From assembly GCA_951406725.2 (NCBI GenBank), contig OX597826.1:35154001-35218000 (forward strand): a stretch of 64,000 nucleotides of DNA, read 5' to 3'. A program made the position numbers and the translations under genes. Under the pieces are notes generated by a model. The model searched no databases, was not told the origin of the DNA, and worked only from the letters and a program-made list of their open reading frames with translations. This document shows, piece after piece, positions 3 through 28,040 of the stretch. Positions within the stretch are counted from its first letter, which is position 1. Every line of letters starts with the position of its first letter. Origin of the DNA: Octopus vulgaris (Eukaryota).

Positions 3-605
3 TAGTTTGATGACTTCTTCGTTGATTTCCTCGTCTATGGTTTTTACTTTTTCTTCATTCGTTTTAGCTCTCAGCTTAAGTAGTTCTATTTCCATCTTCA
101 TTTTTTCTAATGACATTTTTTCTCTAAGTTTTCTTTGTTCTTCTGGTTCTTCCGAGATGGGTTTGATTTGTAATTTACGGGGTATGACTAGGGGTGTTGA
201 GTCTAGCCATTTTTGGTAAATCTCTGCTTTATTCTGATTTTGTATCATTTTCCAAAAAGCGAATTTTCTGTTTCGCTGTAGTGTTCTCCATTGGGAGAGG
301 ACTTGGTTCTTTATTTGTAATGTTGAAGTTGCTCGGTTCTTCTCATGTGTTCCTTCTTTTTGTTGCTCTTGTTTCGTAAAGTTTGTGAAGAATGTCGTCA
401 TTGTATCGCATAGATTTTCAACTTTCTCGAATATTTCGGAGGGTGTTTTATTCGATTCGGTTTCCTCGTTAGTTTGTGTAGAAGGTCGAGGTGTTAAGTT
501 GAGTTTGTTTAACACTGCTGTTAGGTTTGAATTTATACTTTTCAATTCTTTCAGTATCTCTTCATTTATTGAGGAGATGTCGTTGGTGTCTTTTTTAGCA
601 GGCAT
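3..605 (-). CDS. 5' part of an uninterrupted ORF (>=201 aa, continues off the window start); coiled-coil-rich, probably retroelement ORF1 or N-terminal region
   Basis: Hand translation from ATG at 605: MPAKKDTNDISSINEEILKELKSINSNLTAVLNKLNL...QNKAEIYQKWLDSTPLVIPRKLQIKPISEEPEEQRKLREKMSLEKMKMEIELLKLRAKTNEEKVKTIDEEINEEVIKL, with no stop down to position 3. The sense strand is very A-rich, as in LINE/PLE ORFs. It is missing from the ORF track, presumably because no stop lies inside the window. Confidence 0.7.
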   Translation of the reverse strand, partial: MPAKKDTNDISSINEEILKELKSINSNLTAVLNKLNLTPRPSTQTNEETESNKTPSEIFEKVENLCDTMTTFFTNFTKQEQQKEGTHEKNRATSTLQIKNQVLSQWRTLQRNRKFAFWKMIQNQNKAEIYQKWLDSTPLVIPRKLQIKPISEEPEEQRKLREKMSLEKMKMEIELLKLRAKTNEEKVKTIDEEINEEVIKL

Positions 606-1039
606 TTTCGGGAGCTCGTACGTGATATGATATTTATAATAGGATTAGCTCGTATACGAGTAGGTATATATTTGTAAAAAATGAAGTTCGAAAATGCTGC
701 TGTATTATACAATTTTTAATTTTTATATATATATATATATACATCTTCACCCTAAACCCACACCCCACCCTCACATCCCTACCACCATACACCTTCTCAC
801 ACTAGCACTAACCACTTTCCAACACCCACTCTATTATCCACATATTAAAGACGCACACGCGCACATCCCTTTCCACACTTACTCTCACATACACACGCGC
901 ACCTTCATTTTGGGACCACAAGTACTTTATTATTTTCCCTTCTTCCTACCTCTCCTGTCTAATCACCTTTGTCCAACCAGTCGCCTTTATTGACCGCTAA
1001 CTCCAAAAATGTTCACTATTCTCGTTCTGTTTTCTATTC

Positions 1040-4125: not shown

Positions 4126-4217
<92 letters not shown>

Positions 4218-8268: not shown

Positions 8269-8542
8269 TGTGTAGGCAGATCGCGCTTCAAACCCAACTC
8301 AATATATGAAAATATACCTATATAAAAAATAATTCTATCAAAAGCAATAGAATGAATCATGAAAATAATATCTATAATGACCATAGAAATGTCCACACTG
8401 CTACAGTCTTGCATAAATTTAGGAACCGTCACAGAACTGGTTTATTACGTTAAAGATTTCAACAACATCTCCGATTCAATTTCTTGCTTAAGGTTGTTAA
8501 AAACGTAACAAACTAAGACTTAGTGTGAGGACAAACTGCTTC

Positions 8543-8594
8543 TGATGCTGTTGCTGCTGCTGCTGCTGTTACTACTACTATTACAACAACAACA

Positions 8595-8625
<31 letters not shown>

Positions 8626-8682
8626 ATAATAATAATAATAATAATAATAATATTAATAATAATAATAATAATAGTAATAATA
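8543..8682. repeat. Compound trinucleotide microsatellite (CTG/CTA/CAA/TAA)
   Basis: Direct reading. Confidence 0.9.
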
Positions 8683-9696
<1,014 letters not shown>

Positions 9697-13470: not shown

Positions 13471-14297
13471 CATGCAAATAAAAGCAGCGTAACATACTCA
13501 ACAACGGTAATGGTCGATTTTCTCTGCTACTGTGCATACCAGATGTTAAAGGAGCAAGACATGTATTATGAAACTGTGCAACTTATTCAAAATAAAGCCG
13601 AATGGTAAAACCTATTCATGAAATGGTCCCTGGTGCAGCACAAGATAGAGATTAGAAAACCCGGGATCGTATGATTGCTAAGCGAAGTCTTAACCACAGA
13701 GCCAGGTTCCACTATTGTGTCATGACTTAAGCAGAAATGACACATAACAATTATAGAGGAACTGCAAGAAAACTGAAGACCAGCTGCTTGTAGATTAAAT
13801 GATGCTCATAGATTGTAAGTGAAGTAAACTTTACAATGGCTTAGATAGATTGCCGCAAGGACAATCTATCTGTTGCACTCATGAATTCTTGAATGTTTCA
13901 ACACGGAGCCTACAAGGAATGTCAAAAGTGTTGCTTTTTACGTTGAGCTAAAATCATAAAACTTTGAAATACTGAACTCACGTCGTATGGACGGAACTAA
14001 GGAAACGAGAGTGACATTTTTCAATGTGTCAGTGTTTCTCCATTACTATTTGTTTAGTGTATGATTCCTTTAACACTACTACTACTGATAGCAGTACATG
14101 AGTTTAAAGGACAGTTCTATAAACAAGACCTGTACAAATTTTAGATTCATCGGTGCAGAAGGCACCGCAGAGTTTCAATGTTTCCATACACTAGTGAATT
14201 ATATAAGTTATGAATACACATCCTCCTGCGAGAACTTATTGAGAATGAAAACAATATTTTATTGGTATAATTTAAAGATTTCAATAGTTAGTTATAC

Positions 14298-14920
14298 CAA
14301 GGCAGCGAGCTGGCAGAAATTTTAGCACGCCGGGCGAAATGCCTAGCGGTATCTCATCCGCCACTACGTTCTGAGTTCAAATTCCGCCGAGGTCGACTTT
14401 GCCTTACATCCTTTAGGGGTCGATAAATTAAGTACCAGTTACGCACTGGGTCGATATTATCGAATTAATCCGTTTGTCTGACCTTGTTTGTCCTCTCTGT
14501 GTTTAGCCCCTTGTGGGTAGTAAAGAAATAGGTATCTCGTCTGTCTTTACGTTCTGAGTTCAAATTCTGCTGGGGTGGACTTTGCCTTTCATCCTTTCGG
14601 AGTCGATAAATCAAATAGCAGCTGTGTATTGGGATCGATCTAATCGATTGGCCCCCTCCCCAAAAATTTTGTGCCTTGAGTAGAAAACAATATTTTGTTA
14701 TACCAAGGCGGCGAGTTGGCAGAATGGGTAGCACGGCGGGAAAACTACTTAGCGGCATTTCATCCGTCTTTTTGTTCTAAGTTCAAATTTCGTCGAGGCT
14801 GGCTTTGCCTTATACTCTTTCGAAGTTTATAAAATAAGTACAAGTTGGGCACTGTGGTTTAAGCAATCCACTTACTCTTCCCCTAAATTTTCTGGCCTTG
14901 TGCCAATACTTCCAAACCAA
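14298..14920 (+). mobile_element. Tandem array of three SINE family B units
   Basis: Three successive gttc(t/a)(g/a)agttcaaatt + Meta-like blocks starting at ~14298, ~14530 and ~14705. Confidence 0.85.
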
Positions 14921-15195
14921 TATTAGTTATGTCTTGGTTCAATAATGCGGACTTTGAATTGCATACTTTAGAAGTCAATAAAAGAAATACGTGAATAACC
15001 GCCGGAGTTGAGGTTACCGAATGTATGTTTTTTCCAAAATTGTTATCATACACTTAATTTTATAATTCTTATTTATAATAATTAGCTGTGGCACAATGCT
15101 AGGAATAGGTGGCTTCTTTAAACTTGTAATTCATAGATTTAAAAACCAACATTATTTACATTTGATGGATATTTGTCTTCATCTTGTTTGTTGTT

Positions 15196-15241
15196 AACAC
15201 AAAATTTCGTCTGATATAACCTCCAGCCTTCATCAGGTGTC
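15196..15241 (-). ncRNA. Minimal type I hammerhead-like motif (mutated)
   Basis: Minus strand reads gacac-CTGATGA-a-ggctg-gaggttatat-cagac-GAAA-tttt-gtgtt. Confidence 0.55.
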
Positions 15242-15300
15242 TTGGGGAAATTTCGAACCTGGGTTCTCATTCCTAAGGTATTTTTCGATGTTGTTGTTGT

Positions 15301-15377
15301 TATTCAGGTTACAGTCTGGAATCGAAATCGGAATCTTGGGGTTAGTAGCACGCGCTCTTAACCACTATGCCATATGC
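15301..15377 (-). mobile_element. tRNA-derived SINE-like head, left arm of palindrome
   Basis: Reverse complement of 15389-15465; A box tggcatagtggtt; B box degenerate. Confidence 0.7.
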
Positions 15378-15388
15378 CCTAACCACAC

Positions 15389-15465
15389 GCATATGGCATA
15401 GTGGTTAAGAGCGCAGACTACTAACCTCAAGATTCCGAGTTCGATTCCAAGCAGTGACCTGAATG
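15389..15465 (+). mobile_element. tRNA-derived SINE-like head, right arm of palindrome
   Basis: gcatatggcatagtggttaagagcg (A box) ... gagttcgattcc (B box), followed by (AAT)n. Confidence 0.75.
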
Positions 15466-15480
15466 ATAATAATAATAATG

Positions 15481-15571
<91 letters not shown>

Positions 15572-15573
<2 letters not shown>

Positions 15574-16311
15574 GCCCTGATGCAGTACCAGGCAATGCCC
15601 TGATGCAGTACCAGGCAATGCCCTGATGCAGTACCAGGCAATGCCCTGATGCAGTACCAGGGTAAATGCCCTGATGCAGTACCAGGCAATGCCCTGATGC
15701 AATACCAGGCAATGCCCTGATGCAGTACCAGGCAATGCCCTGATGCAATACCAGGCGATGCCCTGATGCAGTACCAGGCAATGCCCTGATGCAGTACCAG
15801 GCAATGCCCTGATGCAGTACCAGGCAATGCCCTGATGCAGTACCAGGCAATGCCCTGATGCAGTACCAGGCAATGCCCTGATGAAGTACCAGGCAATGCC
15901 CTGATGCAGTACCAGGCAATGCCCTGATGCAGTACCAGGCAATGCCCTGATGCAGTACCAGGCAATGCCCTGATGCAGTACCAGGCGATGCCCTGATGCA
16001 GTACCAGGCAATGCCCTGATGCAGTACCAGGCGATGCCCTGATGCAGTACCAGGCAATGCCCTGATGTAGTACCAGGCAATGCACTGATGCAGTACCAGG
16101 CGTATGCCCTGATGCAGTACCAGGCAATGCCCTGATGCAGTACCAGGCAATGCCCTGATGCAGTACCAGGCAATGCCCTGATGCAGTACCAGGCAATGCC
16201 CTGATGCAGTACCAGGCAATGCCCTGATGCAGTACCAGGCAATGCCCTGATGCAGTACCAGGTGATGCCCTGACGCAGTACCAGGCGTATGCCCTGATGC
16301 AGTACCAGGCA
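15572..16311. repeat. Minisatellite, ~32 x 23 bp (ATGCCCTGATGCAGTACCAGGCA)
   Basis: Direct reading; about a third of the units carry point variants and a few are 24 bp. Confidence 0.97.
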
Positions 16312-16844
16312 GTGGCTCTCGTGGCTTCTGATCTTAACTGATTGAAAGTCTTATGAGGTACATTGTTTTGTCTTGGTATAAAAGATGGGCTACAGCAAAT
16401 ATTCTGCTCAATACTACAGATTTGCTTGTCAGTTGTTTGACCTTAACCAGTTGAGCATGTCCCTTACTGGCTGACGATATGTGCATCTCTGATCATGAGC
16501 AGAAGTAGTGGGGGATCATCATAGCCATGTGTTGAGAGAAATTCTTTGGCGTTTGGATAATTCACCTTTGGAAACATGGGTGTTTCGTTCAACATCCTTA
16601 AACAACTCTTATTCAGGGACCTTTTGAGCGGGATGGGCTACTCGACCAGAAGAAAATTCTAACTAGGCCCCACCTGCAAGGTCATGCGCTGTTTATCTTG
16701 ATATGAGATCACCATGTCGCGCACATATGGTTGTGGTGCATGTGCCTTGTGTACCCTTATCAGACGGGTAGTCATGATGGGTATACTGGGCTTCGTATAT
16801 TTTACCCCAGTGTCACTTTGATGGCATACACTGCTCTCTCACTC

Positions 16845-16888
<44 letters not shown>

Positions 16889-16946
16889 CAACAACAACAT
16901 CGAAAAGTACCTTAGCAATGAGAACCTAGGTTCGAAATTTCCCCAA

Positions 16947-16992
16947 GACACCTGATGAGGGCTGGAGGGTATATCAGCCGATACGTTGTGTT
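16947..16992 (+). ncRNA. Minimal type I hammerhead-like motif (one core mutation)
   Basis: gacac-CTGATGA-g-ggctg-loop-cagcc-GATAC(GAAAC expected)-gtt-gtgtt. Stems I and II pair. Confidence 0.6.
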
Positions 16993-17599
16993 AACAACAA
17001 ACAAGAAGAGGACAAATATCCGTCAAATGTAAATAATGTCTTAAATATAGAACTGTATCAACATTATTGTCTTATTCCATGGGCTATGAACTTAGCAACA
17101 AGGTAATTCTATCAGTGATATATTGCACAGAGTTGAATACATTATATTCAAAAATATTAGCAGCCTTAAAATAGATTTATATTCCTTGAAATGAAAAGCA
17201 TTCAGTGCAATTATATTTCCTTGGCCTGGTTAATTAATTCACTGCTATAGTAGCCATGTTTCTGAAAGATCTCGTTAAGAAATTAATTCCATGCTTTGAT
17301 CTACCATTCATTTCCATAGCAGATTAATTTTAATCTCTTTATTAATTTATTATACCTGAGATTAGGTAATCCAAACTAATTTGAAACTGTTTAGCTATCA
17401 AATGCACCTCGGCATCAAGTAATTAACATGAAGTAGTTATATAAACCTACATAATAATCTGACGTTGGCAAATTCAAAATCATTGGATTAGTAAATAGAG
17501 AGTAATTGAATTCGCAATACACCGTTTGACAAAGGCAACTCCACTTCAGCAAATATTGTCTATGCTATTCTAAATTTTTTATCAATTATTATTAGTGTT

Positions 17600-18240
17600 A
17601 CCAAAGGCAGCGAACTGGCAGATTCATTAGCACGCCGGGCGAAATTATTAGCGGTATTTCGCCCATTGCTGTGCTGTGTGTTCAAATTCCTGCGAGGTCG
17701 ACTTTGTCTTTCATCATTTCGAGGTCGATAAATGAAGTAACAGTTGCATACTGGAGTTGAGATAATCGATTTTTCTCCTCTCACCAACATTTTGGGCCTT
17801 ATGCTCAGAGTAGAAAAGAATCGTTAGTACGCCGGGTGAAATGATTAGCGATATTTCGCCCGTCGCTACGTTCTGAGTTCAAATTTCGCCGAGGTCGACT
17901 GTGTCTTTCATTCTTTCGGGTCGATAAATAAAGTGCCAGTTAAATACTGGGGTCGATGTAATAGACTAGTCCCCTCAACCAAAATCAAACTACAGTAGAA
18001 AGGATTATTAGAGTTACCTAAAGTGGTGAGCTAACACAATCGTTAGCACACCAATAATGCTTCACAACATTTCGTCCGGGTTTACGTTCAAAATTCCGTC
18101 GAAGTCGACTTAGACATTTATCCTTTCGGAATCAATAAAATAAGCACTGGTTAAGAATTGGTGTCGATGCAATCTACTATTCCCCACCTTCACTCACAAC
18201 CACTAGTTTCTGGGCGTAAGCCGAAAGCAGCAAAAATTGG
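17600..18240 (+). mobile_element. Tandem array of three SINE family B units
   Basis: Units start at ~17605, ~17815 and ~18020; each has gttcaaa/gtcgact/gataaa blocks. Confidence 0.8.
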
Positions 18241-23330: not shown

Positions 23331-24504
23331 GGTAGTGCTCAAGAGATCACATGTATATATATATACAAATATCCGTCAAATGTAAATAATGTAGTATATT
23401 AATATTTCTAATACGTTAATTGGATCAGTACAACCGCCTGAGGTCTTGGTACTTTTAACTGTATTACGCAGAAAGCAGTTGCTCTAAAGCATTTATGGTC
23501 TCGTAAATCGTGAATTCCCTCACTGAAGGCAGTAATTTTGAAAGATACTACGGAATATGGATGAGCTGAAGAATAATAATCAAATATTAATACTGAAACC
23601 ATGAGGCTATTATCGTAGCCTGTGTATACTGGGAAGGTCTTCCTGTTTCAACTGCAGAGGAAAGTAAATTGATGCTCATCTGTATTCTATGTAGGGGACA
23701 GATGATGTTTAAGTGGGAAAATAAAAAGGGGGCAAACTTCAGTTAGCAAAGTTATGTGAGAGATGCATCTCATTCTCTTTCCTCGTATAGTGAAATAAAA
23801 TTAACAATGTACATAGAGATAGGGAGTACGCATAGTGGAAAGAGATAACGAGATTATTGGATAAAGACACTACGCACTAATCTCAATAAAACCAACAATC
23901 TATGTTTAAATTTGATGAAATAAATTCTGAAATCTAAAGTTCCATGCATAGTTAGATGAAATCAATAAAATAATGTTCAACTCGGACTGCTGCCCTTATT
24001 GTTTTTGTCCATATTACGCAAATGAATGCCAGTAGAATGACTGTCTCTAAGAATTCCCATTGGATTCTTAAAGAATTTAATTACATCATCCTACATTCTC
24101 TGCTCAAATAATTCCATGGTCAATTTACTGTTTTACTTTCAAGATTTAATAAGATACGAATCAATAATAAACTGGCTTCAATTCAATTGATTATACAATC
24201 ACATGTTCAAATTATACACCCACATACACCGCTTTGCACGTACATGTACGACGTATGCAAACATATACAAAGTATTCTCACATGTACAAATTATAATCGT
24301 ATGTACATATAACCACACGTACATATATATACCACATGTAATTATACGCCCTAATATACACATGATAACCACACATGCGCATGATATATACCCAAATGTA
24401 CATATATTCCTGCGTAAATATTCGCAATCTACATAGTAGATCAAAAACATCAAAACATCAGAAACAGGTAAACATGATAGTGATATGTGCTAATAAATAA
24501 TACT

Positions 24505-27709: not shown

Positions 27710-28040
27710 TATTGAGTGAGAGAGCAGTCCTTCTAAGTGACGCTGGTGTATATATTTACGTAGCCCAATATAGCCACCATGACTACCCGTCTGGTATTGA
27801 TATACCAGGGATGTGTATCATAACCATATATGCGCGGCATGGTGACCTCATTTCAGCGCATGGCATTACAGGTGGGGCCCATTAGAATTCATTCTTCTTC
27901 ATGTCAATTAGCCCATCCCAGTCAAAACGATCCTGAGTAAAGTTTGTTTAAGGATGATGAACAAAACACCTAAGTTTTCAGAGATGAACTTCTCAAATCC
28001 TAAAGAATCCCTGTGAGGCTACCCTACTACTCCTGCTCGT
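27710..28040 (-). mobile_element. Degenerate inverted copy of the body of the 15149-17039 element
   Basis: ttgagtgagagagcag, catgactacccgtctg, gcatggtga, caggtggggccc, agcccatccc and gtttaaggatg are the reverse complements of blocks in ~16500-16845. Confidence 0.8.

Follow-up and report, generated by a model that had tools for sequence, protein, structure and literature searches.

The composite repeat at positions 15147-17068 of the window, i.e., the whole 64,000-nt stretch of Octopus vulgaris DNA analyzed, is very probably a head-to-head pair of an abundant unit, made of a tRNA-like head, an (AAT)n tract, and a hammerhead-bearing end. The pair was likely inserted by Penelope-like element (PLE) enzymes, and its right tract likely became, later on, the landing site of an unrelated, AAT-targeted element. 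Two unrelated mobile elements thus make up the locus, the second nested inside the pair formed by the first. In the following, H indicates the tRNA-like head, T the hammerhead-bearing end, and B the body with its 23-mer 5' end, and the repeating H-(AAT)n-T module is referred to as the outer unit.

Organization of the locus

The features of the locus and of its related copies in the window are listed below with their strand.

15147-15156 (+): left target-site duplication (TSD), CAACATTATT, overlapping the tip of the arm by 8 nt; second copy at 17059-17068
15149-15291 (-): left PLE-type end T, without tail; 7/140 differences from the family majority
15196-15241 (-): left minimal type I hammerhead motif, damaged (mismatch in stem II, loss of the palindrome in helix III, gain of a T4 run)
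15289-15304 (-): short (AAT/AAC)n tract of the left unit, without insert
15305-15379 (-): left tRNA-like head; A box intact (15372-15362), B box mutated
15389-15461 (+): right tRNA-like head; A box 15394-15404, B box 15439-15447
15462-15571 (+): (AAT)n, upstream part of the right unit's tract and landing site of element B
15571-16311 (+): 23-mer array of 32.0 copies, the reiterated 5' end of element B
16290-16844 (+): element B, a non-coding, AAT-targeted repeat of ~555 bp and a separate insertion; T4 runs at 16366, 16622, and 16800
16845-16899 (+): (AAT)n(AAC)n, the tail of B plus the downstream part of the host tract; (AAT)n at 16845-16885, then AAC
16897-17039 (+): right PLE-type end T; 5/140 differences from the family majority
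16947-16992 (+): right minimal type I hammerhead motif; its core reads GATA in place of GAAA at 16980-16983
17040-17057 (+): remnant (18 nt) of a PLE-type tail extension, at the right end only
17059-17068 (+): right TSD, CAACATTATT
23365-23392 (+): separate 28-nt remnant of the tip of T
27714-28008 (-): separate, older, 5'-truncated copy of B (75%), limited to its 3' part

In agreement with a first-pass annotation of this DNA, the locus is bounded by terminal inverted repeats with outward-reading hammerheads: the arms (15149-15304 and 16884-17039) are 156 nt long and 92% complementary. The interior order reported there (tRNA-like palindrome, (AAT)n, about 32 copies of the 23-mer, body, and (AAT/AAC)n) is present in full, with palindrome arms at 15282-15377 and 15389-15484 that match at 82%, and the reported lack of a real ORF is likewise borne out, the longest ATG-ORF being 71 aa and the longer stop-free frames passing through repeats. 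The true ends are wider than first reported, since the 10-bp duplication CAACATTATT brackets the pair. The recurrences noticed elsewhere in the window (23365-23392 and 27714-28008) are real, but they are separate copies of two families and not evidence of a single dispersed one.

Rfam (at E up to 5-10) and ARAGORN recovered neither a ribozyme nor a tRNA from the locus. Both ribozyme copies are mutated, as had been observed, the right one in the core and the left one in stem II and helix III. A run of four T (T4) is an established Pol III stop, whatever its strength at the particular runs in B. Because both hammerheads are damaged, the B box of the left head is mutated, and T4 runs precede the right ribozyme, the locus is probably a dead copy. 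For the same reasons, it is unlikely that both strands give ribozyme-terminated RNAs, as the first-pass annotation had proposed; this proposal also fits poorly with the 3' ends of T copies, which lie some 50 or 95 nt beyond the point of predicted cleavage.

On either side of the element, at 14282-14989 and 17587-18185, lie clusters of a further abundant repeat, which is likely also a SINE and occurs many times in the window. Stop-free frames occur elsewhere in the window at 8524-9186 (+), for 221 codons that begin in a microsatellite and run on into LINE-like sequence, and at 3-644 (-), for 214 codons.

Head, tract, and end as a dispersed family

The unit that is paired head to head in the outer element measures ~270 bp and comprises a tRNA-like head with A and B boxes, an (AAT/AAC)n tract, and a T of ~145-185 bp. 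Exact matches to the head-AAT junction are found at 4,160 places in the 2.8-Gb genome, and first-look searches with T returned rough counts of 2,088 candidates as DNA and 38,380 as translated sequence. Among 58 T loci, 39 have a head on the same strand within 1 kb upstream and 6 have B. Sampling by T favors full-length, young copies; a head-based sample, consisting of the first 44 of 100 listed head matches and chosen without regard to T, has T within 500 nt in 29 cases (one doubtful), B in 3, and other sequence in 12. Among these 12, the beginning of T is visible in 2, and about 5 resemble LINE fragments by eye. Moreover, the interval between head and T holds only microsatellite in 65 of 76 units. 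The co-occurrence of head and T, together with these microsatellite-only interiors, establishes H-(AAT)n-T as a real family.

Within this family, T starts at a fixed base after the tract, as 104 of 153 matches begin in its first 9 nt and, in the head-based sample, 27 of 29 begin within the first 7 nt. This regularity bears on whether head and T might be joined only by nesting, with head-(AAT)n as an ordinary LINE-mobilized SINE and T as the truncated end of an AAT-targeting PLE. AAT tracts in this genome attract many elements, PLEs can prefer microsatellites (PMC8557442, in its available text), and 15 of the 44 heads in the sample lack a scored T directly downstream within 500 nt, all of which would suit such nesting. 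It is nonetheless very unlikely, since truncated ends would vary in their onset, an inverted head accompanies 28 of the 58 T loci as part of the inverted partner, and the outer ends of T lie in unique DNA with TSDs.

Compared with the tRNAs of the genome (35 sequences from 30 loci, a set that lacks several types), the head has its best match in tRNA-Arg(TCG), with a z of 8, and both promoter boxes are retained in 28 of 53 full heads. SINEs are defined by reverse transcription by a partner LINE and by a simple-repeat 3' tail (PMC3531059, as far as its text was available). The outer unit has the tRNA-like head with A and B boxes, a length below 700 bp, dispersal, and a high copy number; it departs from SINEs at the 3' end, which is a T with PLE marks, the simple repeat being internal and not a 3' tail. 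From these sequence features, the outer unit is best read as a PLE-dependent SINE, a real and abundant hybrid, likely copied by Penelope-type rather than LINE enzymes. Therefore, of the non-autonomous SINE/PLE hybrid postulated by the first-pass annotation, the head plus hammerhead end stands as a dispersed unit, and the full architecture as one class does not. The genome-wide co-occurrence by which chance nesting was to be judged gives the same division: the body is a chance neighbor, but the head and the end are not.

The tract can also hold foreign sequence that moves with the unit. Specifically, at one locus (L160), the same ~90-nt fragment of a LINE end, free of T4 runs, is found with shared variants in both arms, which points to one template for the two; the outer unit can evidently take along a short passenger in its AAT tract.

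Penelope-type insertion marks

The arrangement of T copies at their insertion sites follows a recurrent pattern. An inverted T lies within 1 kb upstream in 33 of the 58 T loci, and tandem T was observed in none of them. TSD-like flanking matches of at least 9 nt are present in 17 loci, against 1.3% in controls, and are shorter than 9 nt in the other 41. The 3' ends of T fall at two sites ~40 nt apart, with 66 of 153 at positions 140-159 and 79 of 153 at 180-186, and both sites recur in the head-based sample (16 and 12 of 29, respectively). PLE insertions typically have an inverted, 5'-truncated partner and a tail of 30-40 bp at one end (PMC8557442), and the tail has been tied to two reverse-transcription start sites, with uncut RNA as the dominant substrate (PMC11167929). 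As far as the available parts of these two sources go, the inverted partner, the optional tail, and the two 3' ends of T all match them and support the PLE reading of T.

Each of the 16 other loci printed has its own head-to-head junction, which indicates that pairs are made anew at each insertion; the palindrome of divergent heads, which had been taken as a feature of the class, is hence the junction of two copies. The two T arms of the window differ at 12 of 140 positions, in line with 26 other pairs (median 91.5%). A MITE-like DNA element, with arms serving as terminal inverted repeats recognized by a transposase, or a fold-back artifact could also produce long inverted ends that enclose a non-coding interior and are flanked by a TSD. 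This origin is extremely improbable, given that 25 of the 58 loci have no inverted T nearby, that the inner junctions are variable truncations with the tail usually on one arm only, and that a monomer with its own TSD was identified by inspection (L006).

The hammerhead motif

In the motif of T, stem I has 5 bp, stem II has 6 bp and opens with G-C, a single additional base precedes stem II, and helix III is replaced by a palindromic ACGT; these are the traits given for minimal hammerheads in the available text of PMC4209133. It is not a chance occurrence, as the descriptor found 0 matches in 3000 dinucleotide shuffles of a natural intact monomer. Covariation was not detected within the T family, as expected for young copies, and the hammerhead dimer fold did not emerge when dimers were energy-minimized. 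Opposite-strand hammerheads presumably cannot form the same-sense dimer that is thought to be needed, judging from the accessible portion of PMC4209133.

The presence of a type I hammerhead, intact in 60 of 117 copies, raises the case of a retrozyme propagated by circular RNA after self-cleavage, the route proposed for the tandem non-LTR retrozymes, and peptides of a related repeat in other assemblies do show head-to-tail units. The distribution of the copies makes this route most unlikely for the outer unit: besides the lack of tandem T, only a single end and a single start, of 153 each, fall in the bin of the cleavage site, read ends do not pile up in RNA (see below), and no circular joint appears among the joints listed.

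The related repeat emerged when the translation of T was compared with a protein library: of 60 hits, 29 resemble translations of a sister repeat from other assemblies, and an Octopus bimaculoides entry matches at 86%. This sister hammerhead-type repeat (P0124, P0125, P0130, P0133, P0156, and others) consists of tandem units of 35-38 residues, several of them head-to-tail, and was absent from the O. vulgaris genome and from metagenome contigs. At two positions in stem II, the commonest residue pair in the sister-repeat peptides is R,R (10 of 33) versus W,Q here, and a double change from U-A to C-G would account for this difference, as far as peptides can tell. A second, different minimal hammerhead family, with other stems and the same core, was also observed in the genome (L104 and L114).

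Element B and the 23-mer array

The genome search with B returned 6,284 candidates. All 29 other copies examined are flanked on each side by AAT-type tracts, and T follows in 2 of these. The B of the window differs from a stand-alone copy (L032) at 3 of 533 positions and from other B copies at 23-29, and in a tree of 43 copies, poorly resolved overall, these two are grouped with support of 100/99, with the B copies of composite loci scattered. In all four pairs whose other arm spans its AAT tract (the window, L011, L036, and L156), just one arm carries B. The same tract is occupied at L025, L029, and L160 by further AAT-ended pieces, LINE 3' ends among them. B folds better than its shuffles (z -3.3).

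The 23-mer array is present at 10 loci, and the 7 examined among the 9 others are all 5' ends of B with no H or T. B often carries such reiterations of its 5' end (in the window and among L171-L220), and over 25 further loci their unit sizes span 17-232 nt and differ by locus. A ribozyme at the 5' end of B was found neither by Rfam (E up to 5-10) nor by a hand-made HDV-like descriptor, which gave weak, A-U-rich fits only.

These observations bear on the class originally envisaged, i.e., the whole composite as one mobile element with ribozyme-terminated RNAs from both strands. Head-B-T arrangements do recur (L036, L056, L150, L155, and L156), and the passenger of L160 was copied with its unit. 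However, the start point of B varies among composite loci, B lies in one arm only, and the composite B copies are ungrouped in the tree; the other arrays examined lack head and T, the head-to-head junctions change at every locus, and the T4 runs of B come before a ribozyme that, like its partner, is mutated. The one-class reading is largely refuted and can be given hardly any credence; the body and the 23-mer, formerly regarded as parts of the hybrid, belong to a separate AAT-inserting element.

As to the origin of B, LINE 3' ends in AAT tracts carry a putative restriction-like endonuclease motif, and Dong is an element that targets AAT. On this basis, B probably owes its mobility to a LINE that targets AAT, with R4/Dong as a candidate. 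Dong-R4 is described as active in an octopus annotation (PMC13282606, in the text available). When compared with the AAT-targeted LINEs, B is without ORF and no common 3' end was seen by eye.

Search for an autonomous PLE partner

Searches for a PLE that shares T scored the top candidates only and did not reach other PLE clades. A GIY-YIG search gave 150 matches, many of them from a family with intact 781-aa ORFs; T was not detected among 30 of these loci and 20 longer stretches, except for one weak match of 22 nt (E 0.008). Likewise, no autonomous PLE with T was found in 30 of the 76 loci with altered sequence before the core, no frame exceeded 236 aa at the 150 scored T matches, and no common upstream sequence emerged in 26 T matches, as judged on six upstream letters only. 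In pattern searches, T copies with other upstream DNA proved to be truncations, deletions, and inversions. Short motifs of T are absent from the supplement of PMC8557442, as far as available, and the octopus Hydra hammerhead given there differs.

The family with intact ORFs (L091:1949-4294 and related copies) is a PLE with 781-aa RT and GIY-YIG proteins that ends in (TA)n, and its 3' end has only a degenerate hammerhead-like motif. T itself is stop-free in one frame for 61 codons (L009:1501-1683), and its variable 9-nt repeat keeps the frame; this open frame may be a vestige of the beginning of a PLE ORF or may be due to chance. Searches with T as a possible ORF start gave no longer protein, no long frame, and short hits only.

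RNA reads and editing-like signal

RNA reads were collected on 14990-15388 from two raw runs of a related organism (X22 and X23), ~6% of each run being covered; hits of small share in insect metagenomes were disregarded. The region attracted 7,081 reads in X22 and 5,638 in X23, every one of them on the repeat and none on 14990-15129, in equal numbers for both orientations and without a pile-up of starts or ends in this fragmented RNA-seq. The reads show that the outer-unit family is present in transcripts, a result specific neither to the window locus nor to a Pol III origin. RNA and DNA contigs alike contain a fold-back joint at 15379.

Over the family, there are 17 A>G and 23 T>C places in X22 and 16 and 22, respectively, in X23, versus 3 and 7 in the DNA contigs, a comparison between different samples in which contigs drop rare variants; the six listed A>G places reach 9-29% in X22 versus 0.2-1.3%. 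This excess is editing-like and suggests A-to-I editing of inverted pairs. The arms of the window, if read through, would form double-stranded RNA, and octopus has very high hyper-editing and dsRNA potential (PMC5625713, in its accessible text).

Proposed origin and significance

The history of the locus may be reconstructed as follows. Pol III would transcribe the monomer from its A and B boxes, and the reverse transcriptase/GIY-YIG endonuclease of a PLE would recognize the T end and begin copying, on hammerhead-uncut RNA, at one of the two sites ~40 nt apart. The insertion would then generate a direct copy with an inverted partner at its 5' side and duplicate ~10 bp of the target, a pattern visible at the loci for which this mechanism is a plausible source. 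B, like several LINE 3' ends, enters AAT tracts, including those of the outer unit, as the distribution of its copies indicates. Lastly, the 5' end of B, often found reiterated, would be copied repeatedly at insertion to give the 23-mer array, perhaps lengthened later by slippage.

More broadly, and with somewhat less than even confidence, octopods may harbor a Pol III SINE of thousands to tens of thousands of copies that parasitizes PLEs and not LINEs; its ~185-nt end may be a minimal cis-signal of natural origin by which PLEs copy uncut RNA, and its inverted pairs, about half of the insertions, may be a ready source of dsRNA for high A-to-I editing. SINEs are defined as passengers of LINEs, and a high-copy tRNA SINE with PLE marks would add a third kind of driver. 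The outer unit would also offer a short natural substrate for questions on PLEs, namely the RNA signal, the formation of the inverted partner and of the tail, and the need for the hammerhead, and its inverted pairs may add to dsRNA editing in octopus. Moreover, B repeating its own 5' end would be a simple route from retrotransposition to minisatellites seeded at insertion. The window locus itself is an ordinary pile-up of two elements, and the interest lies in the putative PLE-mobilized SINE.

Comparison with known systems

The outer unit shares with the insertions of endonuclease-positive PLEs that carry minimal hammerheads in pseudo-LTRs the minimal type I hammerhead near the 3' end, the inverted 5'-side partner, and the optional one-end tail of 30-40 bp (available parts of PMC8557442, PMC4209133, and PMC11167929); in Schistosoma, opposite-strand hammerhead pairs lie 100-700 bp apart (PMC4209133). 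It differs from PLE insertions in the lack of an ORF, in the fixed tRNA-like head and AAT tract before the end, and in the absence of head-to-tail tandems from 58 loci. Short non-coding derivatives of PLE ends, the non-LTR retrozymes and MRC1, have likewise been proposed to use PLE enzymes (bioRxiv 10.64898/2026.07.22.740005 and PMC8557442), and the word tRNA is absent from the available text of bioRxiv 10.64898/2026.07.22.740005. Non-LTR retrozymes are defined, in the portions of these sources at hand, by tandem units, whereas none of the 58 outer-unit loci is tandem.

As for element B, the R4/Dong-type microsatellite-targeted non-LTR elements resemble it in the 3' (AAT)n end, 5' truncation, and insertion in AAT tracts; B differs in having no ORF, no common 3' end seen by eye, and no 5' ribozyme found.

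Octopus tRNA-derived SINEs, named OK, OR1, and OR2, were reportedly described by Ohshima and Okada in 1994. They have tRNA-derived heads like the outer unit, the head of which scores best against tRNA-Arg. OR2 is a CORE SINE, unlike the outer unit (PMC4758252, in its available text). The outer unit may already be OK or OR1, or be catalogued under another name. In the literature searched, a PLE-mobilized tRNA SINE was not found described; specifically, the accessible texts of PMC7761336, PMC10886601, PMC3531059, PMC4758252, PMC2718515, PMC4640811, and PMC13282606 contain no description of the outer unit.

Further parallels are the schistosome SINE-like SM-alpha and Sj-alpha, short non-coding repeats in which, as in the outer unit, a Pol III-type promoter is followed by a type I hammerhead (PMC6765202 and PMC8490949, in the parts available). 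According to these sources, SM-alpha is tandem and cut from multimeric transcripts, whereas the outer unit occurs as dispersed monomers or inverted pairs that keep the sequence past the cleavage site and have PLE tails and TSDs. Hence, a Pol III promoter followed by a hammerhead (SM-alpha) and non-autonomous PLE derivatives are both known, with no description found, in the texts available, of a tRNA SINE with PLE insertion marks, and the likely PLE-mobilized SINE is related in design to SM-alpha of schistosomes.
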